Origin: a virus | Taxonomy: Duplodnaviria > Caudoviricetes | Virus record (IMG/VR): IMGVR_UViG_3300020202_000071 | Coordinates: 1,754-65,753 of that record | DNA: 64,000 bases | Strand: one strand, 5' to 3' | Part shown: in pieces, positions 4,783 to 30,429 of the stretch | Layout of the letters: every line of letters begins with the position of its first letter | Numbering within the stretch: the stretch's first letter is position 1 | The notes under the pieces: model-generated | The model's database searches: none | Told to the model about the DNA's origin: nothing | What the model saw: the letters and a program-made list of their open reading frames with translations, nothing else | Translations under genes and position numbers: made by a program

Positions 4783-4809
4783 CCCCGAGCCGGGCCAAAA
4801 GGCACGGGG
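4783..4809 (+). promoter_or_regulatory. Conserved hairpin motif, copy 1 (CCCCG-A-GCC-GGGCCAAAA-GGC-A-CGGGG) before ATG 4812
   Basis: Same core as the copies at 15700 and 16435, with a different but complementary outer stem. Confidence 0.7.
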
Positions 4810-4811
4810 GC

Positions 4812-7400
4812 ATGGCACTCGGCCAGTTCTCATGGGAATCGTTCAGTGACCGGGAGGACCCTCGGGCCGGATGGGGGCGGTCGCTCCGGCGTCCACAGGG
4901 GCGCAATCCCCTCCAACGCGTCCAGCAGGAGCGCGGGGATGCCCGCGACGGCACGCTCCCCGGGCTCAGTTTTCAAGGCCTGCCGGATCTGACGGATTCG
5001 CCAGTCGGGTTCAAAACCCCACTGTCGGTGGAATCCGCGACTGCGCCCACCCCGAAACCGACGCCGCTGTCTTGGGACGACGCCATCAGTGCACCAAGCG
5101 CGCCAGGGGTATCGGTCTCCCGGCCATCCGGTCCATCGATGGCGGGACCGGACGAGCCGGTGCAGGCCGGCACGAGACCCATTCCGACACGTCCGGCTGT
5201 GGCCACGCCCGGGGGGGCACAGCAGAAGTTTCAGCGCGTCCGCCAGTTCCAAGAGGCGGTGCAGCAACTGCGATCGACGACGGACCCCCGCCAGCAAGCC
5301 GTCGCCCGCGATCGCCTGTCGCGCGATCTGTTCGCGTCGCTCAAGGCGGACGGCCATCAGGTCAAGTGGAAAGGCGATCAGCTCGTCGTCGATGGCCGCG
5401 TGTACGACGTGGGCGTCGGCACGACGGACGCGCCGCCCGCGCCGGGCGCGTCGCCCGCCGGCGTCGCCAGTCAAACGGCGCGCATGACCACCGCCGCTGG
5501 TGGGCCGCCGACCACGCCGCCCGCGTACGGCAACGACATGCGCGGCGGGGCGATTCCGATCACGCCCCGTGACGCGGGCCAAGGCGATGACGTCCGGGCG
5601 CAGGCGGTGCCGGCGACGCGACCGACGCCGGCGCCGCGCGTCGATCCGAAGCGCACCGGCACGGTGGAAGAAGCCACCAACGCGCTGCAGACCGAAGCGC
5701 AGCGCATTCTCGGTCGACGCCTGACCCAAGAGGAACTGAACGCGATCGCCACGAAAGTCGGCTACACCGGAACCCAAGGCCAGCGACCAACGCCACAATT
5801 GCGGCCACCTGGCGAAGCCGGTCCGGAAGCGCAGGCCATCAGCTACATCCAGCAGGAAGCGCAGCGGATGCTCGGCCGGCAGTTGTCGCCGCAGGAGATC
5901 CAGCAGTACGCCGCCTCGGTCGGCTACAACGGCGGCGGCACGGTCACGGCGGAACAGGTCAACCTCGTGTTACAGCAGATCGCCGAACAGGCCCCGCTCA
6001 GCGGCGGCGGGCCTGGGCAGGTGACTGGCGACATGTACAACCGCGCGCTCGACCTGCTCGAGGCGATGTGGACCGATCCGGACGGCGGTTCTGGGGGAGC
6101 CCCCGGACCCGGCGGACCGACCACGCCGGGCGACCCGGCGGGCGATCCCAATCAACCACCGCTGCCCAACGTGCCGCGGCATCCCCAAGGCGAAATCATT
6201 CCGTTCTATCCGCCCCACGGGCCGAATTACGTCCCGGGTGACATTCCCACCGATGACCTCGAGGGGTTCTCGCTCGACGACATCCTGGGGCACATCGGCG
6301 GCGAGCATCTCGGGCCCGGCGACTTCGACACGCTGACGAGCGACTACCTGCGTCGCCTGATGGCGGATCCGACGGCCGATCTCGGCGATCACGCAATCGA
6401 CGGGCAGACCGGCGATCTCATTTCGAGCATCATGGCCGACCCGACGAAGTTCCTCGGCGACACCGAGACGAGCGACGCCACACGCGCGCTGGCGCTCAGC
6501 GTGCTGCAGAACCCCGAATCGCTCTCGCCGCACGTCGTCGAGATGTTGAAAGGCCGCACGGCCGACGAACTCGCGGAGGCCCAGGCGTTCGAAGACGAGG
6601 AACTCTCGCTCTTCGGGCATCAGAACGGCATCGCCGACTCGAACTGGCTCGCGAGCGAACGCGCCGCGACGAAACGTGATCGGCAGCGCGCCGTCACGGA
6701 CAGCAATCGCAACATCGACATCGCGGCCGCCGAAACCAACATGGCGGATCGTCGCGCCGCCGCGGACCTCGGTATGCGGCTCGGCGCCGAGGATCGCGCG
6801 ATGGGTGAAGCGCGCACCGGCGCGCGCGAACGCGGTGCGACGTTGGGCGCGACGTGGGGCGCGGAACAGTTCCGTCGCGGAGAAGCGCGCACGGGCGCGA
6901 AGCAGCGCGTCGGCGAGATGGGCGCCAAGTGGGCGCGCGACCAGCGCGAGTTGTCGCTCGCCGAGCAACAGGAGCGCCGCGCGGCGGTGCAACTCGCCGC
7001 CGACACGTCGTTGCAATCGGCGGCGCTCCGCGGCGATCGTTACGCGCTGCGGGAACAGATCCACGCGAAGGCCGCGGAGCTCGGCCTCCAGGCCGACCAA
7101 CTCCAGGTGCAATTCATCCTCGGGCAGATGAACGACCTGACGCAGCGCTACGGCATCGACGTCGGGGCGACGATCGATCGTGAGCGTCTGGCGCAGCAAA
7201 GCCTGGAGTTCAAAGAAGAGTTGATGTTCCGCTTCCAGGAACTGCGCGAACGGATGCGCGCGGAGATGGAACGCCTCGCGCAAGAGGACGCACAGTTCGG
7301 GCATGACCTGGCCTATCGCTACAAGGTGCTGGAGAAGGGGCAAGGGGGGATTCCGTACTACGGCGGCGGCGGTGGTGGCTCGTTCTGGTCGTGGAGGTAA
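4812..7400 (+). CDS. Putative ejection / internal virion protein 2, 862 aa
   Basis: Pro-rich disordered N-half, internal duplicated helical unit (EAQR.LGR.L...E....A..VGY.G) and Ala/Gln/Arg coiled-coil C-half. Confidence 0.6.
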   Translation: MALGQFSWESFSDREDPRAGWGRSLRRPQGRNPLQRVQQERGDARDGTLPGLSFQGLPDLTDSPVGFKTPLSVESATAPTPKPTPLSWDDAISAPSAPGVSVSRPSGPSMAGPDEPVQAGTRPIPTRPAVATPGGAQQKFQRVRQFQEAVQQLRSTTDPRQQAVARDRLSRDLFASLKADGHQVKWKGDQLVVDGRVYDVGVGTTDAPPAPGASPAGVASQTARMTTAAGGPPTTPPAYGNDMRGGAIPITPRDAGQGDDVRAQAVPATRPTPAPRVDPKRTGTVEEATNALQTEAQRILGRRLTQEELNAIATKVGYTGTQGQRPTPQLRPPGEAGPEAQAISYIQQEAQRMLGRQLSPQEIQQYAASVGYNGGGTVTAEQVNLVLQQIAEQAPLSGGGPGQVTGDMYNRALDLLEAMWTDPDGGSGGAPGPGGPTTPGDPAGDPNQPPLPNVPRHPQGEIIPFYPPHGPNYVPGDIPTDDLEGFSLDDILGHIGGEHLGPGDFDTLTSDYLRRLMADPTADLGDHAIDGQTGDLISSIMADPTKFLGDTETSDATRALALSVLQNPESLSPHVVEMLKGRTADELAEAQAFEDEELSLFGHQNGIADSNWLASERAATKRDRQRAVTDSNRNIDIAAAETNMADRRAAADLGMRLGAEDRAMGEARTGARERGATLGATWGAEQFRRGEARTGAKQRVGEMGAKWARDQRELSLAEQQERRAAVQLAADTSLQSAALRGDRYALREQIHAKAAELGLQADQLQVQFILGQMNDLTQRYGIDVGATIDRERLAQQSLEFKEELMFRFQELRERMRAEMERLAQEDAQFGHDLAYRYKVLEKGQGGIPYYGGGGGGSFWSWR

Positions 7401-7403
7401 GCG

Positions 7404-8702
7404 ATGCCTGGCGCAGCAGACATCTTCGGCGTCATCGGGGGCGGGCTTGAAGGGTTCGCACGGGGTCTCTCCATTCAACGCGAGCTGGAAGCCGAAGAGC
7501 GGCGTCGTCTTGCAGAGGAAGCGCGGATCCGGCGACAGATGGAACTGGAGGATCGGAGAATCGCCCTCGCCGAGCAAACGCGACGTGATCGCAACAACGA
7601 GGTTGGTCTCGAGACGATGTCCCACGATCGCGCAGCGTGGGAACGCGAGCAGAAAATGCTCAGTGACCAGCGCGTGCAGCAGCAGTTGCAGGCGATTCAG
7701 GAGGAATGGCTCGCCTCGCTTCCGCCGGACTTGCGCGCGATGATGCGCGGCGAGCAACTCGGATTCAAGGGGGCGAAACGCGAGGACTTCCAGTCACCGG
7801 AACAACGCGAGGCGGAACGGACGCGCGCGGCGGCTCAGAAACGGGAGGAGGTGCAAGCCGAGCGCGACGCCGACTTCACAGACTTTCAGCGGCGTGAGCG
7901 ATTCAAAAAAAGCCTTGGCGGCGATCTACCGATCACGCCGAAGGACGATCCGGCGCTGCCGATGGGGGTTCGCGATTACCTCGACTCGTTACTGACCAAA
8001 CATCAGGGAGCGTTTGAAAAGGCCGAGGGGGACTTCAATCAAACCTGGAACCAGTTGAAGGAAGATCACCCCAGACTCGATCCGGCCAAGGCGCGGGAGT
8101 ACCTCAAGCATGTCTTTGGGTATGAGAAGCCTTCCGCAGCCTCCACGAAGCCGAACGCGCTGGACGTGTTTGGTCAGGTCGACCGTCCACCGATCAACGC
8201 ACCGACATCTGGCCGCGCGCGCGGGTTTGGGGCGAGTCCACAAGTGGCGTTGCCTCGGGAGCGGAATCCCGACCCGCGCGGCTTACCGAGACCACGGTCG
8301 GGTAACGGTGACATTGCGCTTGGCCAAGACGGTCAAGCGAGGACATCAGAGGCGGCTGCGGTCATCACGCAGGCGCGCGATGCGCGTGCGGTCGAGGAAC
8401 AGGAGCGCGCGCGCCGGCGCGGCTTGGATGTAGGCGATCTCCCCATCACACCGCTGCCGCGCGAACTCCGGGATGGGCGTGGCAAGCCGGAAACGATGCC
8501 GGTGGAAGTGGTCAGCCAGTCGGTCGACGCGCCACCCGAACGATCGCCAGAAGCGGATGCGGATCGGCTTCGGCGTCTGGAGCAGCAGGCCCGCAGTCTG
8601 CTCTCTCGCCTCGCGAACACGGCGGACACGTCGCAGCAGGACGTGTTGTTCAAGGAACTGGAGCGCGTCAAGGCGTTGCTAGTTGCAGCCGGAGGGAAAT
8701 AG
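7404..8702 (+). CDS. Putative ejection / internal virion protein 3
   Basis: GGAGG RBS. Gly-rich amphipathic N-terminus (GVIGGGLEGFARG) followed by charged coiled coil. Confidence 0.6.
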   Translation: MPGAADIFGVIGGGLEGFARGLSIQRELEAEERRRLAEEARIRRQMELEDRRIALAEQTRRDRNNEVGLETMSHDRAAWEREQKMLSDQRVQQQLQAIQEEWLASLPPDLRAMMRGEQLGFKGAKREDFQSPEQREAERTRAAAQKREEVQAERDADFTDFQRRERFKKSLGGDLPITPKDDPALPMGVRDYLDSLLTKHQGAFEKAEGDFNQTWNQLKEDHPRLDPAKAREYLKHVFGYEKPSAASTKPNALDVFGQVDRPPINAPTSGRARGFGASPQVALPRERNPDPRGLPRPRSGNGDIALGQDGQARTSEAAAVITQARDARAVEEQERARRRGLDVGDLPITPLPRELRDGRGKPETMPVEVVSQSVDAPPERSPEADADRLRRLEQQARSLLSRLANTADTSQQDVLFKELERVKALLVAAGGK

Positions 8703-8706
8703 TCGG

Positions 8707-11700
8707 GTGCCACAGCGTCCCGCCTCATTGCTCGCCGAGATTGACGCGGCACTGGCGTCGGCCTCTGCACGTCGTTCGTCTCCGACAGGCGCCAAGAGTC
8801 TGATCGCCGAGATCGACGCGGTGTTGGGGCAATCGCGCAGTACCCGATCTGCGGTCACGGACCAGACGAATGTCGATGTGTCCGCGCTGCTCGCGGACAT
8901 TGACGCGGCGCTCAACCAGTTCCAGTCACCACACCAAATGCCGCCGGCGATGACTCCATTGGCCAGTCACGCGCGCGAGGCGATGCCTTCCGCCTCGCTG
9001 CCGCCGATGCGGCCGATGTCGAGCCATGCGCCGGCGGCACCGTCGACACCGCTGATCGCCAGCAATCATGCGCAGCGCCCAATGCCGTCTGGTCCACCGC
9101 CTGGCCACGAGACGCGCCCAGGCGTGCAACCACAACCGCGGCGTCAGGGCGATGTCGTCCTCCCCGGCACGAGCGTGCCCCTCGAGGAGATCGAAGATGT
9201 TGTCGGCATGGTGCCCGCGGACCTGGCGGGCACGACGGCGCTCGAACGGCAGACCATTCGATCATCGCCGTCGCGACATCGTCCGCCCGCGCCGCCCGTC
9301 GTCGACACCCCACCCCCGCCGGCGCCGGGACCGACAGAAGCGACCGCGCTCGAATCCGTGATCTCTGGTGTCGCACGAGCGGGACGAGAGTTCGGCGAGG
9401 TGCATCAGCAACTCGGTCGCGGTGGCTTGCAAGGACTGGGTGGCGTCGCGACTGGTCTCGGGCGCGCGATCGAATGGGCTGGAGGCACCGAACCCGCCAC
9501 GCATCCGCACGCACAAACTGCGGAGCGCGTTGCGTCAGGCTTACAGCAGGTCGGCGAGTTGTTGAAGACGGCTGGCACCCCTCCCGATCCGGGACGCGTG
9601 CAGCGAGACATTGCCGAAGAACCCGCAGCGCTCTTGGACCCGCAGTGGTGGACCTACAACATCGGGTCGGCAGCCGGGAGTCAACTCGCGTTTCTGGGTC
9701 CAATGTTTGCGACCAAAGCCGTCGCCGGCGGCATCGGACGAATTGTGTCACTCGTGCCGAAGCTGAAAGAAGCGGCCGAGCTCACTGCGGGGATCGGCGC
9801 CGGTAGCGTCGTCGAAGCAGTTGTCGAAGGCGGGCTGGCGTACGACGACGCGATCGAGAGCGGCGCGACGCCGGAAGACGCCGGCAAGGCCGCCGCCATC
9901 GTCGCGCGCGAAAACATCGATACGTTGCTCGGCACCAATGCCGCCGGCTATTTGATGCCACTCGTGACGGATGCGCGCCCGATTCTGCGCCTGATCGCCG
10001 GGGGATTCTCGGAAGGGGGTCAGGAATACCTTCAGGAAGTCATCGCTGGCACGGCGGCGCAGCAGGTCTACGATCCAGCACGCAATCCCTTTGCGGGTGC
10101 CGCCACAGCCGGCCTGATGGGTGCCGTCACCGGCGGCGCACAAGGCGCGATGATGGCCGCGCCGCAGCGTCCGGCTGTGGCCGCACCTGCCGACGCCGCT
10201 CCGGTCCAGACCGGTATGGCGGTTTCCAGTGACGGGGCAACGGTCGACGGACCTGCTGTTCCTGATGTGCCGTTCGGTCTTGCGCCGGGAGGAACGCCGA
10301 CGGCCACGCCGTCGCCCACCGTTGCCGCGCCACTGACGCGCACCGACACGATCGATGACATCGAAGTAACCGTTCCGGTAGATGCGCCGCCGATTATTCC
10401 CCCACCGACGAACATCGTCGCCACGCCATCGGACCTCGTCGCAGCTGATGCCGTCGCCGTGCCTGACGCGACACGTGACGTCTCACCGGGGGCCGTGGAC
10501 ACCATGCCGCTGCCGTCCGCCCCGAGCGATCCGCTCCCCGGGGTGCGGTATCAGATGCCCGCGCGCGCCATCAGGATGGATCCAGAATCATTGCAATTCC
10601 GGGCGCAGGCGAATCGCGAGGGCCTCGACGCGACGCGCGCCATCACGGAGGCCTATGACCCCAAGAAAGGCGGCATTCTCGCCGTCTGGCGCGATCCGCA
10701 GACGGGCGAGACAAAGGTCGTCAACGGCCATCATCGACTCGCCGCCGCGCAACGCGACGATGCGTCCGTCGCTGTCGTGTACATCGATGCGCCGACGGCC
10801 GCTGAGGCCCGCACCCAAGGTGCGCTGCTGAACATCGACGAGGATCACGCGGATCTGCGCGATGCGGTCCAGCTGTTTGTCGACGGAGGCTTCACCAAGG
10901 CCGACCTCGAGACGTTGGGGATTTCGCCGCGGTCTCGCGTGGCACGCGACGCAGAGGCGGTCGCGAGCTTGGCGCCTGGCATCCGTGCGGCGTGGCAGGC
11001 GGGCGAGGTTCCGGATGGCATCGCAGTAGCGCTCGGGCGCGCAGATCTCTCACCAGAGCAACAGGCGGTCGTCCAGAAGGTCTATCTCCAGCAACAGGCG
11101 AAAGGGCGTGAACTCCCCGCGACGCAAATCAGTATTCTGGCGCGGCGCGTCAAAGCGGCGCCGGAGACGCGCCAGACCAGCGATCAGGGGTCGATCTTTG
11201 ATGTCCTTGGTGAGGAGCGCGGTCAGAATCTGTTTGTCGAGCGGGCAGCGCTCGAGGATTGGCTCGTGTCGCAACTCGGTCGCGACAAGCGCTTATTTGG
11301 CACAGTCAGTCGGCACGCCGACCGGCTCACGGAAGGCGGCACACAGGTCGATGTTGTGCAAGGCGAGCGGATTGCGGCAGAATCTGGTCAGGCTGCCGCC
11401 GTGGTGCGGCGCCTGGCGGACGTCGCCGGACCCGTCAGCCGCGCCTTGAACGAGGCGGCGACCCGTGTCGCGGCCGGAGAGAATCTTCATGCCGTCCGAA
11501 CCGCGCTCCTCGATGTCGCCCGCACCGCTGCGCGCGCCGAACTCGGCACCGCGGCCGCTGCTCACCCCGGCGCAAAAGGCACATCTGATGCGCGCGTATC
11601 CACGGCTCCGGAAGGCCGTGTCCTCCCGAACGACACCGACGGCTCACCGCGTACCGCTGTCGTAGCACGGCGCGGTGGCGGTACCGCGCGCGCGATGCCG

Positions 11701-14700
11701 CCCGCCACTCTGCGGGTGACGATTCGCGAAACTACCTATCGCGATCGTCCTGGCTTCACGGTCAGCTGGAGAGACGGCGCGTTTCCGCAATCGGTCTTCG
11801 TCCCATCCCGGATTCAAGCCGACGCCATCAAGTCTGTCGTGCAGCAGGGCGGCGGTGTCGACGCGATTGATCGGATTGTCCGCGATGGCCCGCCGATCAC
11901 GACGGACACGCTCCCCACGGGCGAACGGCAGCCGCGCCTCCCGGAAGCCGGCGAGGTGCGCGATCGCGAAGTGGTGACGCCGCCCGTGGCCGCGGTGCCC
12001 GAGCCTGAATTTCGTTTACGCGGTCAGTCCGCGCGCGCGCCCGCCACGCAAGGTCGCCTGTTCGGCATGTCAACCGCCGCGACGTCCACGCCCATGGGTG
12101 GCGACGCCCTGCGACAAGTCAACGACTACACGTTCGAGCAACCGCCATCGCACATTACTAATCGGTTTCGCGGTCGCGCGCCGATCTCCGAACATCAGGT
12201 CGTCAACACCTTACGGCGCATCTTCGCCGTCTCGCGCGAGAGCGGCGATGTGCTGGATCGCTTGGCGGGATCGGAGCAGGTGCCACTCCCCACACGCCGC
12301 GGCCGCAGCACCATGATTCGTCGTGGTCGGGCCCTAGGCGTCTACAACACCAAGACCGGCAGCATTCGACTCAAGCGGGACATAGATCTCTCCACGTTTG
12401 TGCACGAGCTCGGCCATCACATCGACTTCGCCTTGTTCGAACAGCATGGTCGTCCGATGGGCCTGTTCAAAGACGAATTGCTCCGCATGGGCGAAGGCAC
12501 CACGCCGCCCTCGATGCGCGGCGTCAAGAAGCATGAGTCCTATCAACTCGCGGAAGGCGTCGCCGAGTTCTTCCGGATCTGGTTTCCTGATCCGGCGCGC
12601 GCCAAGACGGTCGCGCCGAAGTTCTCGGCGGCCTTAGACGAGGTCATGCAGCGCGCTGAGGGGTTTGGCCAGCAGCTGGAAGACGCGCAATCCCTGGTGC
12701 AGCGGTATCTGTCGCAGGACTTGGCCACGCGCGGCGTCGCCCGCATCAGCATTCATCCGCGCTCGCTCGCGTCGGCCCCGATCGCGGCAGCCCGGCGCAC
12801 CGTCCGCAACGTGCGCGAGGCGTATCGGGAGGGCGGATCACTCAGGGCCACGGCGAAACGCGTCGGGGCGTCTGTCCTCGATTCCCTCAACGTGCCGAAG
12901 TGGATGCGCGACCCGCACCAGCAGTGGCAGGCATTCCGGAAACAGTGGATTGATGATCTCGACGCGATCCAGCGGGCCGTCTTCGACATGGCGGGCGATG
13001 ACCTGAGCGCGGCCGATCACGCGTACGTGCTGGCGCGCATCGCGCGCGGCACCGCTGGCAAGGCCCAAGGGTTTCTCGAGCACGGCGTCCGGGATCTCGA
13101 TGGGCAGTTTCTCGGGCCCTCACTCCGCGCCGCATTGGCACCCGTCATGGACCGGCTGACGCGGGACGAAGGAGCGCCATACACGCGGCCCGATTTGGCG
13201 TCGTATCTCGTGGCGCTCCGCGCGCGCGAGCTGCACACCCGCACGACCAACCCACGCGATCCAGGCATGAAGCTCGCGGAGGCCGAGCTGATCATTCGTG
13301 CCACGGAAGGTGATGCGCGCTTCGAGCAATTTGCGGCCGCGCGCGATGCCGTATATGCCTACCAACGGTCGCTCTTGGCGTACGCCAGGCAGGCCGGGGC
13401 GTTCAGCGAGGCGCAGATTACGGCGATCCAGAAGGCTGGCGAGTTCTATGTGCCGCTCCAGCGAGTGCTGGAAGAGGTCGAAGAGGCGGGCGGCGGAAGC
13501 GCCAAGCGCATTGCGGATCGCGTGAGCCCCATCAAGAGCCAGAAGGGCTCTGGTCGCGACATCATCGATCCCTTTGAATCGATCGTGAAGAACACGGCGA
13601 CCATCGTCGACATGGTCGAAAAGAACCGCGCGATGATCGCGCTGACGTCACTCGCCGACGAGACGACCGGATCGGCCCTATGGCTGGAACGGGTGCCACC
13701 CGATCAACTGCCCACGACGTTCAGACTTGACCAGCTCCAAGAGGTTGTCGTCGACAAGCTTGTGGCCGCCGGCACGGACGTTCCCGAGGGCATCGACTGG
13801 TCGGACATGGTGACGGTATTTACACCCACGCTGTGGGGCGATCCGAAGCACCGGATCGTCACGGTCATCAAGAATGGCAAGCGGCAGTTCTATCAAGTGC
13901 AGGACGAAGCGCTCTACCAGGCGATCACCGCAATCGGCCCGGCCGCCGCAACGGAGTTGATGCACTGGATGGCCAAGCCGACGGCGGTCCTCCGGGCGGG
14001 TGCGACGTTGACGCCTGGCTTCATCATTCGCAACCTGCTGCGAGACACCGTGGGCGCGATGCTGCAGTCGCGGCACGGATTTATCCCGGTCATCGACACG
14101 CTCGGCGGGTGGGTGTCCATGTTCCGGCGCGACGCGGACTGGCAGTTATATCAAGCCGCCGGCGTGCAACAAGCGGCACTCCTGGGACAGGACCGCGATC
14201 GCGTGGCGTCCGTGCTCGATGAACTCGGCGACAAAGGCTGGCGGCGCCGGATCAAAACCGCGCTGCATCCGCTCGATGCGCTGCGACGGGTCTCCGAACA
14301 GATCGAAAACGCCACGCGCGTCGGCGAGTTCAAGTTGGCGCTTCGCAATCCCGGCGCGGACCGACGGGTCGGGGTTCTCGGGATCGCGCAACGCATGGCC
14401 GATACCGCGCGCGGCCGGAATACGCCGATCACCGAGCGGCACCAACTCGCGCGCGCGACCCTCGCAGCGCGTGACGTGACCGTGGACTTTTCGCGCGGGG
14501 GGACGAGCGCGAAAGAGGTCTCGCAGTTCAAAGCCTTCTTCAACGCCCGCACGCAGGGCTTTGCACGAATTGCCGAGACCGTTCACCGCGACCCGACTGG
14601 CGCGGCGATCACGGTGGCGGGACTCTCAGCGCTGTCCCTCGCACTGTGGATGTTGAACAAGGACGATGAGGACTACCAGACCCTCACGCATCGCGAGCGC

Positions 14701-15594
14701 ATGGACTACTGGTGGTACAAGTTGCCAGGGAACGACCGGTGGCTCCGGATCCCCAAACCGCACGAGTGGGGCGCGATCCCGAACGTCGTCGAGGGCGCGC
14801 TCAACCAGGTCTACCACGAACAGCCGGATGAAATCCGCCGCATGATGCCCATTCTCCAAGGGATTTCGTGGACGGAACTCGCCACGGCGTTCACGTTTAC
14901 GTTTGTGCTGCCCGCATTGGAAGCTGCCAGTAACTACGACACGTACCGTCGCCGACCGATCGTGAGCCCGTTCGACGAGATGAACCTCTTGCCTGAGGAT
15001 CAGTACTCCGAGTTGACGTCCGAAACGATGAAACTCGTTGGGAAGGCACTCGGCGTGTCGCCCGCCAAACTGGAACATCTGGTTGTTGGGTATACCGCGT
15101 CGGCTGGGCGGGCGGCCCTAGATCTGACCGATCCGATTGCACGACTGATCACCGGGAGGCCGGCCAGGTCGCCAGTAAAGTGGCGATCGGAGCAATGGCC
15201 CGGCCTGGGCGTGGTGCTCAGGGACGCCTCGCCCACCAGTTACGCGCAGCCACTTCAAGACTTCTATCAGGAGCGAGCCGAACTGCAGCGGGCTCGTGGG
15301 ACTCAGCGCGCGCGGCAACGCGCCGGGGATGCGGCGGGCATCGCCGAGATCAACGAACGGTACGGTGCCAGGTTCACCCCGGAGCACGTCGCGCGCATCC
15401 AAGCCGCCGATGACGCCATTACGGAACTGCGCGGGATGCGAGATCAGGTTGACGCATCCGCAGACCTGACACCAGCCGAGCGGAAGCGCGCTCGTGAGGT
15501 GATTCACCGTGCGATGGTGCGATGGGCGGCCACCGCGACATGGTCGCCGACGATGAAAACGCACGTCCTGCCGCGAGCGGCCAGCGGTCAGTAA
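8707..15594 (+). CDS. Large polyvalent virion/ejection protein (~2,295 aa): ParB-like domain, zincin-like HExxH peptidase, LPD38-like C-terminus
   Basis: VVNGHHRLAAA (ParB/Srx), STFVHELGHHID...EGVAEFF (zincin), and C-terminal DVTVDFSRGG / FFNARTQG / LRIPKPHEWG / SPAKLEHL motifs. GTG 8707 follows GGAGGG; the ORF track starts at 8683. Confidence 0.75.
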   Translation: MPQRPASLLAEIDAALASASARRSSPTGAKSLIAEIDAVLGQSRSTRSAVTDQTNVDVSALLADIDAALNQFQSPHQMPPAMTPLASHAREAMPSASLPPMRPMSSHAPAAPSTPLIASNHAQRPMPSGPPPGHETRPGVQPQPRRQGDVVLPGTSVPLEEIEDVVGMVPADLAGTTALERQTIRSSPSRHRPPAPPVVDTPPPPAPGPTEATALESVISGVARAGREFGEVHQQLGRGGLQGLGGVATGLGRAIEWAGGTEPATHPHAQTAERVASGLQQVGELLKTAGTPPDPGRVQRDIAEEPAALLDPQWWTYNIGSAAGSQLAFLGPMFATKAVAGGIGRIVSLVPKLKEAAELTAGIGAGSVVEAVVEGGLAYDDAIESGATPEDAGKAAAIVARENIDTLLGTNAAGYLMPLVTDARPILRLIAGGFSEGGQEYLQEVIAGTAAQQVYDPARNPFAGAATAGLMGAVTGGAQGAMMAAPQRPAVAAPADAAPVQTGMAVSSDGATVDGPAVPDVPFGLAPGGTPTATPSPTVAAPLTRTDTIDDIEVTVPVDAPPIIPPPTNIVATPSDLVAADAVAVPDATRDVSPGAVDTMPLPSAPSDPLPGVRYQMPARAIRMDPESLQFRAQANREGLDATRAITEAYDPKKGGILAVWRDPQTGETKVVNGHHRLAAAQRDDASVAVVYIDAPTAAEARTQGALLNIDEDHADLRDAVQLFVDGGFTKADLETLGISPRSRVARDAEAVASLAPGIRAAWQAGEVPDGIAVALGRADLSPEQQAVVQKVYLQQQAKGRELPATQISILARRVKAAPETRQTSDQGSIFDVLGEERGQNLFVERAALEDWLVSQLGRDKRLFGTVSRHADRLTEGGTQVDVVQGERIAAESGQAAAVVRRLADVAGPVSRALNEAATRVAAGENLHAVRTALLDVARTAARAELGTAAAAHPGAKGTSDARVSTAPEGRVLPNDTDGSPRTAVVARRGGGTARAMPPATLRVTIRETTYRDRPGFTVSWRDGAFPQSVFVPSRIQADAIKSVVQQGGGVDAIDRIVRDGPPITTDTLPTGERQPRLPEAGEVRDREVVTPPVAAVPEPEFRLRGQSARAPATQGRLFGMSTAATSTPMGGDALRQVNDYTFEQPPSHITNRFRGRAPISEHQVVNTLRRIFAVSRESGDVLDRLAGSEQVPLPTRRGRSTMIRRGRALGVYNTKTGSIRLKRDIDLSTFVHELGHHIDFALFEQHGRPMGLFKDELLRMGEGTTPPSMRGVKKHESYQLAEGVAEFFRIWFPDPARAKTVAPKFSAALDEVMQRAEGFGQQLEDAQSLVQRYLSQDLATRGVARISIHPRSLASAPIAAARRTVRNVREAYREGGSLRATAKRVGASVLDSLNVPKWMRDPHQQWQAFRKQWIDDLDAIQRAVFDMAGDDLSAADHAYVLARIARGTAGKAQGFLEHGVRDLDGQFLGPSLRAALAPVMDRLTRDEGAPYTRPDLASYLVALRARELHTRTTNPRDPGMKLAEAELIIRATEGDARFEQFAAARDAVYAYQRSLLAYARQAGAFSEAQITAIQKAGEFYVPLQRVLEEVEEAGGGSAKRIADRVSPIKSQKGSGRDIIDPFESIVKNTATIVDMVEKNRAMIALTSLADETTGSALWLERVPPDQLPTTFRLDQLQEVVVDKLVAAGTDVPEGIDWSDMVTVFTPTLWGDPKHRIVTVIKNGKRQFYQVQDEALYQAITAIGPAAATELMHWMAKPTAVLRAGATLTPGFIIRNLLRDTVGAMLQSRHGFIPVIDTLGGWVSMFRRDADWQLYQAAGVQQAALLGQDRDRVASVLDELGDKGWRRRIKTALHPLDALRRVSEQIENATRVGEFKLALRNPGADRRVGVLGIAQRMADTARGRNTPITERHQLARATLAARDVTVDFSRGGTSAKEVSQFKAFFNARTQGFARIAETVHRDPTGAAITVAGLSALSLALWMLNKDDEDYQTLTHRERMDYWWYKLPGNDRWLRIPKPHEWGAIPNVVEGALNQVYHEQPDEIRRMMPILQGISWTELATAFTFTFVLPALEAASNYDTYRRRPIVSPFDEMNLLPEDQYSELTSETMKLVGKALGVSPAKLEHLVVGYTASAGRAALDLTDPIARLITGRPARSPVKWRSEQWPGLGVVLRDASPTSYAQPLQDFYQERAELQRARGTQRARQRAGDAAGIAEINERYGARFTPEHVARIQAADDAITELRGMRDQVDASADLTPAERKRAREVIHRAMVRWAATATWSPTMKTHVLPRAASGQ

Positions 15595-15699
15595 CGGCTA
15601 GACTCGGTCCGGGCAGGAATGGTACAGGTAGCGCAGCGCGCGCTCGGCAAACCTGGGCTGCGACGGTTCCAGCGCGCACAGTAGATTCGTCACCACCGA

Positions 15700-15725
15700 T
15701 GCCAGCCGGGCCAAGAAGGCAGGCA
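15700..15725 (+). promoter_or_regulatory. Conserved hairpin motif, copy 2 (TGCC-A-GCC-GGGCCAAGAA-GGC-A-GGCA) before ATG 15729
   Basis: Shared core with a compensatory outer stem. Confidence 0.7.
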
Positions 15726-15728
15726 CCG

Positions 15729-15965
15729 ATGTCCGGGGAGACCCCACGCGGCCAGAACACCTGGGCGCGCAAGTTTTTCGATCTCGTCCTACCGATCATC
15801 GCCGCGGGCATCATCTCGTGGACGACATCGGTGCTGACGCTTCAGACGAAAACCGCGATTCTGGAAGAACGCCAGAATCAGAACTTCCTCGAGCTTCAAC
15901 GCACCATCAGCTCGATGCGCGAGGACGTGCGCGAGATCCGCGCCGAATTGCTACGCCGGCCATGA
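15729..15965 (+). CDS. Single-TM coiled-coil lysis-module protein (holin/antiholin-like)
   Basis: One hydrophobic helix plus coiled coil. ATGA overlap with the lysozyme gene. Confidence 0.6.
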   Translation: MSGETPRGQNTWARKFFDLVLPIIAAGIISWTTSVLTLQTKTAILEERQNQNFLELQRTISSMREDVREIRAELLRRP

Positions 15966-16426
15966 CGGATCGCGATCTCAACGACATGCTCGCCCAGTTG
16001 ATCGACCACGAGAGCGAACGGCTCGTGGTCTACGACGACGCCACCGGGAAACCCCTGAAACAGGGCGACACGCTGAAAGGGCATCCGACGATTGGCATCG
16101 GCCGCAACCTCGCGGGCAAAGGGCTCACGCGCGAGGAGTCGCGGTATCTGTGTCGCAACGACATCGACGAGTGCGTCCGGGACTTGGTGACGTTCCCGTG
16201 GTTCCTCGATCTGAATGTCGTGCGGCAGCGCGCATTCGTGGATCTGCGGTTCAACCTGGGGCCGGGCACGTTCCGGCAGTTCAAAGGCATGTTCGCCGCA
16301 CTCAACGACCGGGATTACGACGCGGCCGCCGATCACTTGAAAGCGAGCCTCTGGTATCGGCAGGTGGGACGTCGGGGGCCTCGGATCGTGCACATGGTGC
16401 GGACGGGAACCGACCCGACGACGTAG
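15962..16426 (+). CDS. Endolysin, T4-like lysozyme (GH24)
   Basis: HE..RL.VYDD...GHPTIGIGRNL, RQRAFVDLRFNLG and SLWYRQVGRR motifs. Confidence 0.9.
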   Translation: MTDRDLNDMLAQLIDHESERLVVYDDATGKPLKQGDTLKGHPTIGIGRNLAGKGLTREESRYLCRNDIDECVRDLVTFPWFLDLNVVRQRAFVDLRFNLGPGTFRQFKGMFAALNDRDYDAAADHLKASLWYRQVGRRGPRIVHMVRTGTDPTT

Positions 16427-16434
16427 ACGACAAC

Positions 16435-16463
16435 CGCTCAGAGCCGGGCCAAAGGCATGAGCG
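16435..16463 (+). promoter_or_regulatory. Conserved hairpin motif, copy 3 (CGCTCA-GA-GCC-GGGCCAAA-GGC-A-TGAGCG) abutting ATG 16464
   Basis: Shared core with a compensatory outer stem. Confidence 0.7.
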
Positions 16464-18209
16464 ATGGAGCATCTCCAGGCGATCGACGACAACGAGAAGA
16501 ACGCGACAGCCGGCGCGGTCGTACCCATCCTGATCGCCCATCTCTGGGCCAGTGTCCGTGGCGCGTTGGTGCACGCGGGATGCCTCTACGGCCAGTTACG
16601 GCAGCGCGGCGCCGACGCGGCCGCAGCCGAAACCACGCTGATCGGCGTCGTGCGGAAGTGGATGAAGCGCGAACCGATCGCGATTGTGAGCATTCGCGGC
16701 ATCGGTGACGACGAAATTCTGGCGCTCGCGGATCACGCCGGTCGGATCCCCGACAGCGATCACGGTGGCCTGTTCGATTTCGGCGTGCAGTTCGGCCAGC
16801 ACGTGGAAGCGGGCGCATCGCGCGAGGAGGCGTATCACGCCGCCGGCGCATGGCTCGTGCAGTGGTACGGCGGGGAGAATCCCTGGCCCGCGCCGGAACC
16901 TGTTCCGACCCCAACGCCCGTCCCGACGCCAACGCCCACACCGGCCCCAACGCCTGTTCCCACGCCCACGCCGCCACTACCGGGAACGGAACTGCCGGCG
17001 TTGCGCGCGCGTGACCGCTGGTTCGCGCAGCACAGCAAGACCGACGCCTTTGATTACCGTGAAGCGACGGCCTTCATGCTCTTCGCGCGGTTCCTGCGCG
17101 GCGAAGACATCACCGACCGACTGCGCTACTGGCAGCGCTTCAAGATCAACAGCCTGCGCGTGATCGGCATGGTGCGTCACCCGTTCTGGGTCGAGCACGG
17201 GTGGAACCTGCATCCCGACGTGCCGCACTACTACGACGGCTGGCGGCCATTCCTGACGCTCTTGGAGCGGCACGGCTTCTATTGCCGCCTGTCGCTGTTT
17301 GCCGATCGGGACCATCTGCGCCATCTCGATCTCGCGGCCCACGCGGCGCGCATGGGGCAAGTGCTACACGGGTGCCGGAACGTGATTATCGAAATCACGA
17401 ACGAGCCCACCATGAACGGCTTTCAGGAGCCGAGCGAATTGCAGCTCCGCGTCGCGGGAAGTCCCGATCCAATCGAGGAAGCGATGACGGCGCACGCTGA
17501 GGCACAGGCGACGGCGCGTCTCCGGTTGGCCACGACGTTCTTGGAACACGGCGGCCCGGCGCTGCTCGCGCTTGGACCCGAGCACGGCGCGCGCGGTCAC
17601 CTGCTTACGTACATGCTGCCGCCGGCGACCTATCTCCCGTTCCACGCGGAGCGCGTGACCTGGGAGGACGGCTGGGCGTGGGTCCGCAGGATGGGCGAAT
17701 ACGGGCCGATTCAGAATCCGCTCGGCTGGCCGGCGCTCTCCGGTGAACCGATCAACGCCGGCACGCGGCCGGCGAATCCGAGCGATGCGGAACCGTCGAC
17801 GGCGATCTGGTACGCGTATGGCGCCCTGTCGCGGATCGTCCCCGAGCGCGGCTACCTCCCGTGTTTCCACTTCGACCGCGGACTGTTTGCCGATCTCCCG
17901 GACGCGCCCGCCGAAGCGTGCCTCGCCGCGTTCATGCAGGGGTGCGATGACGTGCCGATCCGCGCGCGCGAGCACGGCTGGACAAACGGGCATCACGGAA
18001 CGTCGCCGTTCCGCGACTACTTCCAAGAGTCCGATCCGCTCAACGACCGACCGGTGCGCATCTACGGCCGCGGCACCGGAAAGGACTACATCGGGATCGC
18101 CTTGCGGGCACCGCGCGACTGGCGCTGGCCAGACCTGCGGTTTCCGATTCGCAAAGTGCGTGAGATCCACGATCGCGGCTGGAGCGCGCAACTCTGGCAG
18201 GGAGTCTGA
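16464..18209 (+). CDS. Putative clan GH-A (GH5-like) glycoside hydrolase with Pro-Thr linker
   Basis: (PT)n linker at ~16890-16975. INSLRV, IIEITNEP (acid/base-like) and LSGEP (nucleophile-like) motifs. Confidence 0.55.
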   Translation: MEHLQAIDDNEKNATAGAVVPILIAHLWASVRGALVHAGCLYGQLRQRGADAAAAETTLIGVVRKWMKREPIAIVSIRGIGDDEILALADHAGRIPDSDHGGLFDFGVQFGQHVEAGASREEAYHAAGAWLVQWYGGENPWPAPEPVPTPTPVPTPTPTPAPTPVPTPTPPLPGTELPALRARDRWFAQHSKTDAFDYREATAFMLFARFLRGEDITDRLRYWQRFKINSLRVIGMVRHPFWVEHGWNLHPDVPHYYDGWRPFLTLLERHGFYCRLSLFADRDHLRHLDLAAHAARMGQVLHGCRNVIIEITNEPTMNGFQEPSELQLRVAGSPDPIEEAMTAHAEAQATARLRLATTFLEHGGPALLALGPEHGARGHLLTYMLPPATYLPFHAERVTWEDGWAWVRRMGEYGPIQNPLGWPALSGEPINAGTRPANPSDAEPSTAIWYAYGALSRIVPERGYLPCFHFDRGLFADLPDAPAEACLAAFMQGCDDVPIRAREHGWTNGHHGTSPFRDYFQESDPLNDRPVRIYGRGTGKDYIGIALRAPRDWRWPDLRFPIRKVREIHDRGWSAQLWQGV

Positions 18210-20123: not shown

Positions 20124-20374
20124 TGTGTTACGGCCAAGCCGTGTCAGAAACGTGTCACGAATCACGGCTACAGGGGGGCACGTCAGGGCGGCCAGATGTG
20201 GCAGAACTCGTAGAACTGGCCGAAAACTCGCAGGAACCGCCCGATCGCGTCATCAGCACACAGCCTTAGAAGGCCGGTGCTCTATCCAACTGAGCTACGG
20301 GCGCATACGGAATTTACGGGCTTTTTTGCGTGTTTTCGGCGTCGCCCGCGATCGACGTGTCACTGACGTGTCAC
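20124..20374. other. attP region: core in the tRNA-Arg anticodon loop, paired CGTGTCAS arm repeats and phased GAACT repeats
   Basis: CGTGTCAG/CGTGTCAC at 20140 and 20151; CGTGTCAC at 20356 and 20367 (both pairs 11 bp apart). Located between the xis-like gene and the integrase. Confidence 0.8.
20266..20304 (-). pseudogene. 5' half of tRNA-Arg(TCT) (att homology)
   Basis: Minus strand reads GCGCCCGTAGCTCAGTTGGATAGAGCACCGGCCTTCTAA: acceptor 5' strand, D-arm and anticodon loop. No T-arm follows. Confidence 0.88.
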
Positions 20375-21458
20375 CGAAGTCGTCCGTGAACACCGTGCGA
20401 TCCATGCCAAGGTACTCCATCATCTGATCGAGCGACGTCCACCCGCCGATCATCTGGACTGTGCGGATGTCGATCTGAAACTCACGCAGCATCCGCGTGG
20501 CGCCGCTCGCCCGCGTCGCCGTGTGCCAGACGATGCCGCCATTCCTGATGCCCCACGGCACGTCGGCGGCCTTCGCGGCCTGCTGCACCCGCCGGAGGAA
20601 CCGTCGGCGCGGCACGGCCGGATCCTCGGCCTTCGCAAACGCCTCCTGCCAGTCTGGGAAGAAATAGCCGGTGTGCGTCTTCGGCCAGCGCCGCTTGAGG
20701 ACTGCGGCCGCGCGCGTCTGCAAGGGCGTCGGGCCGGTGAGCGGGATCTGATGCGGGCCCGTCTTCGTCAGGAGCGCCAGACGATCACCGCGGTGACTCG
20801 CGCGTTGCAGGTTGATCAGCGGTTCTTGGCGCAGCAGCGTGCCGACACCGACGACGTAGAGATCGTGGATCTCACGATCGAGCCGCTTGAGTGCGGCGAG
20901 GAACGGACGTTCTTCCTCGCGCGTGAGCGTGCGCTTGGCCGGCAGCTTGTCGCGTTTGCGTTTCACGGTGCCGAGAGCGTGTGCCTTGATCCACTCACCG
21001 ACCGCCGACTTGAGAATGGACTTCATTACGGCGAGCTCGGTGCCGACCGTCGTGACCGTGACGCCGTCCGCTAGGCGATCAGTCTCGTACTCGGACCAGC
21101 GCGCCGGCGTGATGTCGACGAGACTGATGTCGCCGAACGCGTCGATCAGGCGCTGAATGCGGAGCGCCTCCTGCACCTTCCCGCGATGTTTCGGCGTCTC
21201 GTGCGTGAGATACCACTGCGCCTGCGCGCGAAAGGTGCGACCGCCGCTGACTTGCGGGAGATCGAAACGCTGGCGAGCAGCATCACCGAGCATAGCGTCG
21301 TACGCGAGTTGCGCGAGGCGGCGGTTCTCTTTGGTTTGCTCAGGGTCGGCCGCCTTGACGAGGATCTTGGTGGACACGCGGGTGCGCCCTCGCTGGCCTT
21401 TTCGCTTCGGCAGGTTCAGCCAGTAATACTGGCTATCGGGACGCGTGACGACGCCCAT
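20295..21458 (-). CDS. int: Tyrosine recombinase (phage integrase)
   Basis: Catalytic set TLLR, TKT, WHTATR and GGW...EY. N-terminal arm-binding-like region. Overlaps attP. Confidence 0.9.
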   Translation of the reverse strand: MGVVTRPDSQYYWLNLPKRKGQRGRTRVSTKILVKAADPEQTKENRRLAQLAYDAMLGDAARQRFDLPQVSGGRTFRAQAQWYLTHETPKHRGKVQEALRIQRLIDAFGDISLVDITPARWSEYETDRLADGVTVTTVGTELAVMKSILKSAVGEWIKAHALGTVKRKRDKLPAKRTLTREEERPFLAALKRLDREIHDLYVVGVGTLLRQEPLINLQRASHRGDRLALLTKTGPHQIPLTGPTPLQTRAAAVLKRRWPKTHTGYFFPDWQEAFAKAEDPAVPRRRFLRRVQQAAKAADVPWGIRNGGIVWHTATRASGATRMLREFQIDIRTVQMIGGWTSLDQMMEYLGMDRTVFTDDFGDTSVTRRSRATPKTRKKARKFRMRP

Positions 21459-21782
21459 CGCTACGAGTTGGCCCTGCAACGGTTCGCCACGCCATCAAGG
21501 AGGTTGGCATGACGGAACACCTGAAACGCCCTGATGTGGCCCGAGAAGACACCGAGCGGCTGCGTGACCGTCTGGTAGCCGAGCCAGACCGCGTTCGCGA
21601 GCCGGTCGTCGATTGGCCGGAGTTGTATCGGCGTCTGTGGCAGGTGAAGCTCCGATACTTTCACCCAGACAACCGCTGAGTCCTTGGAGCGGTCGCGGTC
21701 GACGGCGCGCTGGCGTCGTGGTGCCGACGCCCTATACTGTCCGTAGGCTCTCCCCGAGCGCGTTGCAGGAGAGGTGTGAACC

Positions 21783-27123: not shown

Positions 27124-27482
27124 CCGTGATCGTCGTCTGGCCGGATGACTGCAGTGCACGCGTCAGCGTGGAGCTCGCCGCCGCGATGGTCGCGCGGCGT
27201 CCCGACCTCCGCGTGCACACCGAATGGTGCGACGCCTATGTGATGCCCCCGCCGCGGCTCGTGCCGAAAACGGTCGCGCGGCGCGGGCCGAGCCAACTGA
27301 CGCCAGAGGAGCGACGTCGCGTCGTCGCCGACATCAAGGCTCTCGGGTACGTCGCGGCGAGCAAGCGGTGGGGCATGAGTATGTCGAGCGTGCAGCGGTT
27401 GATGCGGCAAGAGGGCGAACGCGTCATGGAGCACGGACGTGAGGCGTGGTGGCGTTCGCGCTACGGACTCGATGCGAAGTGA
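27120..27482 (+). CDS. HTH protein
   Basis: LTPEERRRVV...ASKRWGMSMSSVQRL. Confidence 0.55.
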   Translation: MTVIVVWPDDCSARVSVELAAAMVARRPDLRVHTEWCDAYVMPPPRLVPKTVARRGPSQLTPEERRRVVADIKALGYVAASKRWGMSMSSVQRLMRQEGERVMEHGREAWWRSRYGLDAK

Positions 27483-27492
27483 GGAAATCACG

Positions 27493-27822
27493 ATGGAACA
27501 GACCGTCACCGCACCGTCGCCGAACGACTCGCGCGATTACCTCGCCGAGGCGCACGCGATCCTCAAAGGCGAGACGCTCTTGATGCCGACGCGTGAGCAC
27601 TTGCTCGTGCTGCAGCAGGCGATCAACGAGACCGCACTGCTGTCCGGACTGCTGAACCGCGTCGTCTGCGGCCTGCTGATCGACAGCGATCGGAGCGAAG
27701 TCTGCATCCCGGCGGGGCTCGTGTCGGAGGTCGAACGTCGCCGCCTCGATCTCGCCCTCACCAAAAAGAACGGTCACATCATCGCGACGCTGATCGCGCC
27801 CCATCGCGGGCCGACCAACTAG
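27493..27822 (+). CDS. Hypothetical protein
   Basis: GAGG RBS; operon position. Confidence 0.55.
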   Translation: MEQTVTAPSPNDSRDYLAEAHAILKGETLLMPTREHLLVLQQAINETALLSGLLNRVVCGLLIDSDRSEVCIPAGLVSEVERRRLDLALTKKNGHIIATLIAPHRGPTN

Positions 27823-27832
27823 GAGGGGACCC

Positions 27833-28519
27833 TTGTCGTTTCGTTTGTTTCCGCATCTGCAGCAGTGTGTCGGGCGGCATCCGTCGCACGTCAACGGCGT
27901 GTATCCGAAGAATGACTCGGCGTATCTGCTGCCGCTCGAAGCGGCGGACCGCAGTGCGGGCGGGATCATCATCGCCGAAGCGCACCGCGAGCAATCGCAG
28001 AAGGCCATCGTGCTCGCCGTGGGCAACGGACTCTGGCACGACGAGCAGATGAAGCTCTATCCCGTCGAGTGCGCGGTGGGGGATCTCGTCTACCTCGCGA
28101 GCAAATACGCCGGCGTGCTGGTCGACGTCGGGGGCGGTCTGGACGTGATCGCGATGCGGCCCATCGAGCAGATCGGGCGTAAGCCGCACGGCACCTTCCA
28201 GTTGGTCGAACACGTCATCGGCCAGGGCACGTCCCGCGAGAAGGCGATCTATCACGAGGTCGGCGAGACCTGCGACCACTGCCCGAAGCCCACCAGCACG
28301 CTCATCGAAGAAGAGCGCGCGCGGCTGGTCGCGGCGCGCAATGCCGACACCGCCGCCCCGTCCGAGGACAGCACCGCGGGCGAGATCGAGCACGAGTCGG
28401 CGCCGTTGTCGCCGGCGTCGGAGCACGCACCATCGCGCGCGGCAGGAGCAGAGCCGCTATCTCGCGGCACTCCATCTCTATGGAGCCGTCAAGCCGCTCG
28501 GCGGCTTGGCTTGGCATGA
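27833..28519 (+). CDS. GroES/Cpn10-like co-chaperonin with C-terminal extension
   Basis: YPKND......SAGGIII....KAIVLAVGNG...VGDLVYL.KYAG; AGGAGG RBS. Confidence 0.8.
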   Translation: MSFRLFPHLQQCVGRHPSHVNGVYPKNDSAYLLPLEAADRSAGGIIIAEAHREQSQKAIVLAVGNGLWHDEQMKLYPVECAVGDLVYLASKYAGVLVDVGGGLDVIAMRPIEQIGRKPHGTFQLVEHVIGQGTSREKAIYHEVGETCDHCPKPTSTLIEEERARLVAARNADTAAPSEDSTAGEIEHESAPLSPASEHAPSRAAGAEPLSRGTPSLWSRQAARRLGLA

Positions 28520-28606
28520 GTTGTCGGGCGAGCAGCGCGCGTCGTTCTACGCGCTCATCGACACGGCGATCGCGGCAACCGATCTCACACCGGAGGTGAA
28601 GTAGCC

Positions 28607-29782: not shown

Positions 29783-30429
29783 TCGCCGCGCTGCACACGA
29801 GCGGGCTCGCGTTCGACGAGGCGACGCACACCTACCGCGTCGACGGGCGTGAGATTCCGTCCGTGACCCAGGTGCTCGCCGACAACCGGCTGCGGCCGGA
29901 CTTCTCGCGCGTGCCGCCAGACGTGCTCGATCGCGCGCGTCAGCGTGGGACAGCCGTGCACCTGGCGACGCATTACCACGACGAGGGCTCACTGGATCCG
30001 ACAACGGTCGATGCGGTCGTCGTCCCGTACCTCGACGCCTGGCTGCAGTTTCTCCACGAGCGCCGCGTGCGCATCCTGGAACTCGAGAAGCGCTATGCGC
30101 ATTCGACGCTCGGCTACGCCGGGATGATCGACCGGATCGCGCTGGTCGACGTCGGCGGCCGCGAGCGGCGCTGCGTCCTCGACATCAAGACGGGCGATCC
30201 GAGCGGCGCGGAGTATCAGACCGCCGCCTACGCCGAGCTCTATCGCGACGCCGGCCACGTGTCGTCGTTGCCACCTGAACGCTGGTCGGTGCAACTGCAC
30301 CCGGACCGGCCGATTCCCTACACCGTGACGCCGTATCGCGAGTTGCGCGACTGGCGCATTTTCCGCGCCGCGCTGGATCTCACTCACGCGCGCGCCGCAC
30401 AGGGGCAGTCCTGGAGAGAGGCCGCATGA
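29779..30429 (+). CDS. PD-(D/E)xK exonuclease (Cas4/RecB-like)
   Basis: PSVTQVL, RGTAVH, YAGMIDRI, LDIKTG and YQTAAY motifs. Confidence 0.85.
   Translation: MIAALHTSGLAFDEATHTYRVDGREIPSVTQVLADNRLRPDFSRVPPDVLDRARQRGTAVHLATHYHDEGSLDPTTVDAVVVPYLDAWLQFLHERRVRILELEKRYAHSTLGYAGMIDRIALVDVGGRERRCVLDIKTGDPSGAEYQTAAYAELYRDAGHVSSLPPERWSVQLHPDRPIPYTVTPYRELRDWRIFRAALDLTHARAAQGQSWREAA

Follow-up and report, generated by a model that had tools for sequence, protein, structure and literature searches.

A start-associated hairpin element and its co-varying complementary apex in the late genes of a temperate tailed phage: candidate antisense-loop control of translation starts

What does a short hairpin-forming sequence do when it is repeated just upstream of the start codons of several late genes of one phage? 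The question is raised by IMG/VR virus record IMGVR_UViG_3300020202_000071 (65,753 base pairs (bp), rated complete by CheckV), of which bases 1754-65753 were analysed; this stretch of 64,000 nucleotides (nt) is called the window. The phage is a tailed soil phage, is temperate because an integrase is present, and has a GC content of 66%. The element is real, conserved and structured, and a hairpin apex complementary to it was newly found downstream of the portal gene, so that a three-copy element becomes a candidate two-part system. On balance, the sequence comparisons lead us to favour control of translation starts by antisense loop pairing.

Four target hairpins were located in the window, all of them in the structural and lysis module:

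4783-4809, + strand: target hairpin 1, CCCCG-A-GCC-loop GGGCCAAAA-GGC-A-CGGGG, with motif AGCCGGGCCA at 4788-4797, before ATG 4812 of a gene for an 862-amino-acid (aa) protein
15700-15725, + strand: target hairpin 2, TGCC-A-GCC-loop GGGCCAAGAA-GGC-A-GGCA, before ATG 15729
16435-16463, + strand: target hairpin 3, CGCTCA-GA-GCC-loop GGGCCAAA-GGC-A-TGAGCG, directly adjoining ATG 16464 of a gene for a 581-aa protein
53686-53715, + strand: target hairpin 4 (portal), GTCA-C-CGCA-G-CC-loop GGGCCG-GG-A-TGCG-A-TGAC, 2 nt 5' of GTG 53718

The cores of copies 1-3 (4788-4804, 15704-15721 and 16442-16457) ended 7, 7 and 6 nt before ATG 4812, 15729 and 16464, respectively, and the hairpins of the window ended 0-7 nt upstream of the start codons. 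The outer stems were CCCCG/CGGGG (4783-4787/4805-4809), TGCC/GGCA (15700-15703/15722-15725) and CGCTCA/TGAGCG (16435-16440/16458-16463), and each of the three copies folded into the hairpin listed. The pattern AGCCGGGCCAA N1-4 GGCA matched three times in the window, on the + strand only, and in none of 100 dinucleotide shuffles; the 11-mer AGCCGGGCCAA alone matched three times vs. 0.02 expected. Cores, outer stems and spacings to the ATGs had all been proposed for copies 1-3 in the original prediction, and coordinates and folds agreed with it. An upstream CACAG..TTCGTCACC is present in both copies 1 and 2, as had been reported, and the compensatory nature of the stems was borne out, as outer stems of differing sequence still paired in the window and in relatives. 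The portal copy, previously described as a weaker one, is a genuine fourth hairpin with stems differing from those of copies 1-3 and with its core AGCCGGGCCGGG at 53694-53705.

A functionless small repeat or mobile sequence, or chance in GC-rich DNA, could account for the CACCGATG direct repeat that surrounds copy 2, and single matches to the pattern were common among IMG/VR virus contigs (at least 119 stretches, with one match each among the matches listed). The empty shuffles argue against this explanation, as does the placement of the element at orthologous starts, which was kept in lineages with less than 50% portal identity; it was already disfavoured and appears very remote.

Relatives were obtained as related IMG/VR contigs retrieved with portal and capsid alignments, with identities to the window of 44-62% for the portal (45-57% over its first 400 residues) and 68-87% for the capsid. 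Eight lineages were used: G000 (the window), G001, G002, G005, G006, G007, G008 (L152) and G009 (L164). Near-duplicates (G003, G004, L149, L155 and L156) were left out, as were L150, in which the complementary apex sequence is present and the portal start is missing, and the distant G010/L165. From CCGGG sites before starts in these lineages, 22 copies were picked by eye; two ambiguous copies (G002 30958 and G009 6618) were excluded from the tests. The former is an extra GCCGGGCCAAAGG copy within the giant open reading frame (ORF) of G002, with CACC/GGTG flanks and 22 nt before an in-frame ATG, and may mark an internal start or be due to chance.

The portal start was preceded by the element in 8/8 lineages, with the core GCCGGG, or GACCGGG in G009, and the portal copy is the best-conserved site and the universal target. 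The gene for the 862-aa protein carried the element in G000, G005 and G007; its G002 ortholog, which shares the N-terminus MALGQFSW, lacks it; there the gene overlaps the preceding stop codon, and its ribosome site is a strong GGGAGGG. At the first gene after the giant ORF the element was found in G000, G002 (where the inner stem includes a G-U) and G005, and a few other genes in relatives were also preceded by copies. The gene set is wider than the ejection protein and lysis genes named initially. Beyond the core, the letters shared among the copies of one genome were GCCGGGCCA in G000, G001 and G002, GCCGGGCGG in G005, AGCCGGGTGG in G007 and GACCGGGCCA in G009.

The distance from GCCGGG to the start was 15-21 nt in all of the 22 chosen copies. 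Loops between the conserved halves measured 4-10 nt and whole target hairpins 26-34 nt, and the outer stems varied in sequence from copy to copy yet paired. The 3' arms could not be aligned by MAFFT, and scripted tests were used. In unconstrained folds of a fixed 50-nt window, the CC of the motif closed a GGG-led loop with at least seven pairs in 14/22 copies vs. 25/1167 other CCGGG sites taken from either strand of the eight genomes (Fisher p = 3e-17).

A Shine-Dalgarno (SD)-like tetramer (AAGG, AGGA or GGGA) stood 4-13 nt before the start in 16/22 copies, and in each of these 16 at least two of its bases were paired in the minimum free energy fold; its GG pairs with the invariant CC of the motif. 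The original prediction saw no clear SD at the three genes. This was right only in part: an AAGG or GGGA, half paired in the hairpin, is present 8-11 nt before the start. Judged by eye, most other genes of the window had GGAG-type ribosome sites, and plain sites of this type preceded the high-copy scaffold, capsid and tail neighbours.

Passive RNA elements might produce much of this architecture, either as half-buried weak ribosome sites that set a low constant expression or as processing or stability hairpins, spread by duplication and having no trans partner. The burial of the SD-like GG in 16/16 copies having one is as expected from such elements, the tagged genes plausibly encode low-copy proteins (portal, holin-like), the flanking sequence common to copies 1 and 2 suggests duplication, and lineages differ by gain or loss of the element at the 862-aa gene. 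Passive elements would give no account of the 7-9 specific letters, beyond a stem, that are kept across lineages, nor of motif letters that change together with the apex described below, and we consider them a rather improbable explanation.

The second part of the system lies on the other side of the portal gene:

53718-56138, + strand: portal gene, with a PHROG portal match and orthologs in the relatives; preceded by the motif and followed by the anti-motif
56236-56298, + strand: long hairpin between the portal and scaffold genes, with the anti-motif CTCTGGCCCGGCT (56260-56272) at its apex
56455-56526, + strand: tRNA-Met (CAT) called by ARAGORN, in the portal-scaffold spacer, 183 nt downstream of the anti-motif

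The sequence TGGCCCGGCT at 56263-56272 was its sole + strand occurrence, the other three matches to this 10-mer being the reverse sides of copies 1-3. Among the minus-strand motif copies listed, there was one in the portal-scaffold spacer of each of G000, G001 and G002. A + strand complement of the genome's own motif was found 55-128 nt past the portal stop in every lineage, and in L150 as well, and in each of the eight lineages it was at or beside the apex of a long hairpin. Fold z-scores of the long hairpin in seven genomes were -2.9 (window), -4.4, -1.15, -3.7, +0.67, -2.96 and -1.95, the positive value being that of G006, for which the fold window was too short for the stem. A 61-codon ORF with a CPGC motif (56147-56330) overlaps the long hairpin of the window and was not conserved in the other spacers. 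No ORF was conserved across the portal-scaffold spacers compared, and a small protein gene in the spacer was rejected because the reading frame was not conserved.

Each of the 22 copies formed 8-12 contiguous Watson-Crick pairs, anchored on the core, with the apex of its own genome, and the portal copy of the window formed 12 contiguous pairs with the anti-motif when G-U was allowed. The mean anchored helix was 9.5 bp for cognate vs. 7.5 bp for non-cognate combinations (8/40320 permutations of genome labels were as good), and duplex energies in seven genomes averaged -25.9 for cognate vs. -23.2 kcal/mol for non-cognate combinations (38/5040 permutations as good); the lineages are related, so that the permutation trials are dependent, and three separate change events were counted:

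G007: motif GCCGGGT, apex ACCCGGC
G005: motif GCCGGGCGG, apex CCGCCCGGC
G009, all three copies: motif GACCGGG, apex CCCGGTC; two positions, a double exchange

Elsewhere in the window, CGGCCCGGCT at 34975-34984 (+ strand, within an early gene) complements the portal motif copy; it is the sole other 10-nt complement in the genome and is probably due to chance.

Complementarity and co-variation of this kind need not be a matter of RNA. The conserved 9-10 bp could be a duplex DNA site for a phage regulator (a stoperator-like repressor, a late activator or a sigma-like factor), with the post-portal copy as an inverted site. Stoperators are DNA sites for a phage repressor and need no hairpin. In the passages of PMC3203893 that treat those of Cluster A mycobacteriophages, they occupy short intergenic gaps in one orientation. 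The present element is like them asymmetric, multicopy, in one orientation, in short intergenic gaps and in a temperate phage, and unlike them it has a hairpin architecture that is not expected for repressor DNA sites. Equal co-variation would result if a protein recognised the duplex motif in either orientation, which is the most important point against RNA pairing, and allowing G-U lengthened just 4/22 helices, by estimate roughly what chance would give. A DNA site would have no need for flanking stems of free sequence, yet the hairpin was found in 14/22 copies vs. 2% of controls; nor would it explain loops that vary from 4 to 10 nt in length between the conserved halves, or an inverted copy that is always at the apex of a long hairpin. 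No sigma-70-like promoter was found near the portal copy, and a core 15-21 nt from the start is too close for a classical upstream activator. A DNA site is accordingly held to be unlikely. Three features lead us to prefer RNA: the targets form hairpins in which the stem sequence is free and the loop has 4-10 nt, every target lies on the gene strand with a constant spacing to its start, and the reversed copy is exposed at the tip of a hairpin in all cases.

If RNA is the active form, a protein could still be the partner. A hairpin serving as translational operator for a phage or host protein, with recognition of the GGG loop and the GCC stem and with the apex incidental or a decoy, would match the conserved loop and 5' arm with free outer stems, which is the look of protein operators, and a start codon at constant distance is in keeping with a protein that occludes the ribosome site. 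Scans of 19 proteins against PHROG and Pfam gave no candidate RNA-binding protein, and the co-varying complement at a conserved place would be left unexplained; we regard this operator as quite improbable. The original prediction had offered such a protein-bound operator, for which there is still room and to which nothing points, the complementary co-varying apex having been found instead. Its other proposal, kissing through the self-complementary GGCC of the loop, was dropped, as the GGGCGG or GGGTGG loops of relatives are not self-complementary and the GGCC is not conserved. A nut/boxB-like antitermination site was also dropped, on the loops of 4-10 nt at late starts, a judgement made from sequence only.

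The system that we favour would consist of two parts within the late transcript, a set of small target hairpins (four here) and one long hairpin after the portal gene; we infer that both act as + strand RNA and pair with each other, and the direction of the effect is likewise inferred. Each target would put its 5' arm and the beginning of its loop (A-GCC-GGG...) 15-21 nt before the start codon, with the invariant CC held by the GG of a weak SD-like AAGG, AGGA or GGGA. The apical loop of the long hairpin, being complementary to the 5' arm and loop of the targets, would first pair with their loops and then extend the pairing into their 5' arms. On the portal cistron it would act in cis, across the 2.4 kb of the gene, and on the other genes in trans, perhaps after the hairpin is cut free beside the tRNA; the tRNA-Met may supply a processing site that frees the hairpin RNA upstream of it. 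The apex and the SD-like GG would compete for one and the same CC, so that pairing should release the ribosome-binding site. Given pairing, there would be about an even chance that it frees the ribosome site and turns translation on. The opposite effect, in which a GC helix of 9-12 bp at -24 to -14 blocks the 30S subunit and caps the yield of low-copy proteins, has a smaller, still appreciable chance. Motif and anti-motif enclose the portal gene in every one of the eight lineages, so that originally the system may have served as a 5'-3' contact across this cistron, with other genes recruited later, which fits the gain and loss at the 862-aa gene.

Several results, apart from the ambiguity of a duplex site, weigh against pairing between the two parts. 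The folding energy of copies 1-3 was ordinary for a genome with 66% GC (z = -1.4, +0.06 and -1.5), and upstream regions bearing CCGGGCC (11, of which 8 are true copies) were no more stable than those of 160 other gene starts (Mann-Whitney p = 0.2). RNAalifold returned 0 pairs for the eight long hairpins, which are too diverged for MAFFT to align, and gave no formal covariation. The copies of G006 made at most 8-9 Watson-Crick pairs. Sites of equally long complementarity occur elsewhere in each genome, the apex being among the 1-8 best sites. Co-folding energy barely separated 18 targets from 243 other gene starts (p = 0.03), and in 4/22 cognate co-folds the pair was no more stable, or hardly more stable, than the two RNAs folded on their own; loop-loop kissing lies outside what co-folding can model. 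The element was missing at the G002 ortholog of the 862-aa gene and at the portal start of the distant G010/L165, and the choice of the 22 copies by eye favours some of the counts. Among the sequencing runs searched, no RNA run contained the phage; two soil DNA runs contained the stretch, one of them perhaps the run from which it came, and the contigs from these two were identical at the hairpins.

Neither part corresponded to a catalogued RNA. With Rfam release 15, 0 matches reached the gathering score over the window, and the two matches in 56100-56760 were at chance level; no family was matched, C4 included if it is in the library. The element is not in Rfam, and no description of it was found in the literature as far as searched. 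The characterization as an unrecognised structured cis element over late-gene starts held in that the element is strand-specific, conserved in relatives and without Rfam match, and its positional bias was present in homologs (22/22 chosen copies 15-21 nt before the start).

According to the account in PMC12197685, phages P1 and P7 encode the c4 antisense RNA, whose loops base-pair at the ribosome-site region of the target. In mechanism it is the nearest tested example: the candidate system would, like it, comprise a phage-encoded structured RNA with loops complementary to short sites at the ribosome-binding region, and in both the letters of regulator and target differ together between related phages. 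For immunity, c4 acts on a single target, icd/ant, which it blocks by pairing directly over the ribosome site. Here, unlike c4, there would be several late-gene targets, and the pairing of 8-12 bp is predicted with the arm opposite the SD-like element, just 5' of it. The c4 RNA is processed from the transcript of its own target by RNase P. In geometry the candidate system matches the action on rpoS of DsrA or RprA, host small RNAs that depend on Hfq and activate long leaders by an anti-antisense mechanism: the ribosome site lies in the 3' arm of a hairpin, and it is the 5' arm to which the regulator binds. It differs from them in its hairpins of 26-34 nt and in having the regulator within the same operon.

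The late module of the phage runs from about 49.6 kb across the end and start of the record to about 19.4 kb. Further features of the window are:

8728-15594: giant multi-domain ORF, 2288 aa
within 15818-16426: lysozyme
20295-21479, minus strand: integrase
50030-52597: large terminase with an intein (Pfam Intein_splicing, Hint)
57785-59137: major head protein

The giant ORF matched polyvalent-protein, methylase/methyltransferase, ParB-like and head-protein families or PHROGs, in the manner of a packaged polyvalent protein. Its counterparts in relatives are 4698 aa (G002 27475-41571) and 4287 aa (G005 27402-40265) long, and alignment across relatives was limited to the C-terminal ~1100 residues. 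Hairpin promoters of a virion RNA polymerase were rejected on the family matches of this ORF (polyvalent-protein, methylase, ParB-like), among which there was no polymerase. The gene at 15729, the first after the giant ORF, encodes a 78-aa protein with one membrane helix, which is putatively holin-like. The 581-aa protein (16464-18209) had no Pfam or PHROG match, and a protein search with its gene gave no homolog. It has a Pro/Thr-rich linker and a C-terminal part with an ...ITNEPT... stretch, which we take, unsupported by Pfam or PHROG, to be reminiscent of glycoside hydrolases. The 862-aa protein matched only itself in a set of 5.8 billion proteins, and a search of genome contigs with the portal alignment gave no relative. 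The terminase intein was missing from the orthologs of G001, G005 and G006 (about 550-610 aa).

Other observations concern the portal-scaffold spacer and its surroundings. The first acceptor pair of the tRNA-Met was read as a C-A mismatch, as in bacterial initiator tRNAs, and Rfam gave no match at 56455-56526 even at E-values up to 1. By reading the spacers, a clearer tRNA-Met was seen in the corresponding spacer of G006 and a tRNA-like sequence in that of G002; L165 has a tRNA-Met before the portal gene. A GC-rich hairpin followed by a T-rich run (56636-56695) stands directly before the AAGGAGAG site of the scaffold gene, with similar arrangements in G002 and G006; a simple terminator scan of the + strand did not list it. 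A second start-associated repeat, the extended ribosome site (A/G)GGGAGATCC followed by 3-7 nt, precedes the starts 60525, 61758 and 62373 of three consecutive genes in the window (60505-60524, 61738-61757 and 62350-62372), and was also found before the orthologs in G001 and G002.

Start-associated repeats have a longer history in Cluster K mycobacteriophages. Start-Associated Sequences (SAS) are described in the sections of Pope et al. (2011; PMC3203893) devoted to them as repeats in one orientation, 3-7 bp before start codons, with a function given there as unknown and binders suggested to be "either RNA or protein"; the same sections mention one SAS in the opposite orientation, away from gene starts, in four K1 phages, and report that the authors saw no hairpin support for the extended SAS. 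The function is still called unverified in the corresponding passage of a 2025 source (PMC12699233). SAS and the present element are alike in being short and asymmetric and in recurring in a single orientation a few nt upstream of selected starts, where they overlap the ribosome-site position, and both are kept across subgroups at genes of different families. The element shows the SAS traits in being on the + strand only, with its core 15-21 nt before the start and a single reversed copy away from starts (56263-56272). The sequences are unrelated, the 13-bp SAS consensus having 0 matches in the window at up to 2 mismatches and 17 at 3 mismatches vs. 16.3 expected. There are 11-19 SAS per genome, in the non-structural half and with a strong AGGAG, according to the sections cited (PMC3203893), whereas the element occurs 3-4 times, at genes of the late structural and lysis class, and its SD-like site is weak and lies inside the hairpin. 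Because sequence, copy number and gene class differ, the element is not filed as SAS.

In Mycobacterium phage Anaya, 16 forward SAS and one reversed SAS (59870, gp96-gp97 spacer) were found, and the reversed one occupies the 10-nt apical loop of an extended hairpin on the + strand (L170 9830-9920, corresponding to Anaya 59830-59920). The z-score of this hairpin was -4.4 in a 146-nt fold window and -0.04 in the 91-nt window alone. The layout is the same as that of the reversed copy here, as seen in one Cluster K genome. We put forward as a tentative and rather doubtful generalization that start-associated sequences of phages may in general serve as addresses for a single antisense loop RNA, of which each genome encodes one copy.

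Late-gene control in tailed phages is usually described as transcriptional, and the large differences in protein amounts obtained from a single long late transcript are mostly put down to the strength of ribosome sites. An antisense loop inside the operon that addresses chosen starts would, if true, be a new control layer, which here would reach the portal gene together with the genes for a holin-like protein and a large virion protein and one further gene, and it would offer a concrete mechanism for start-associated sequences, known since 2011. The co-varying letters would be natural specificity swaps. Were the generalization to hold, it would account both for this family and for the long-unexplained SAS of Cluster K, and phages would own a translation regulon open to re-programming, as a change in one loop and its tags would retune the entire set of genes.

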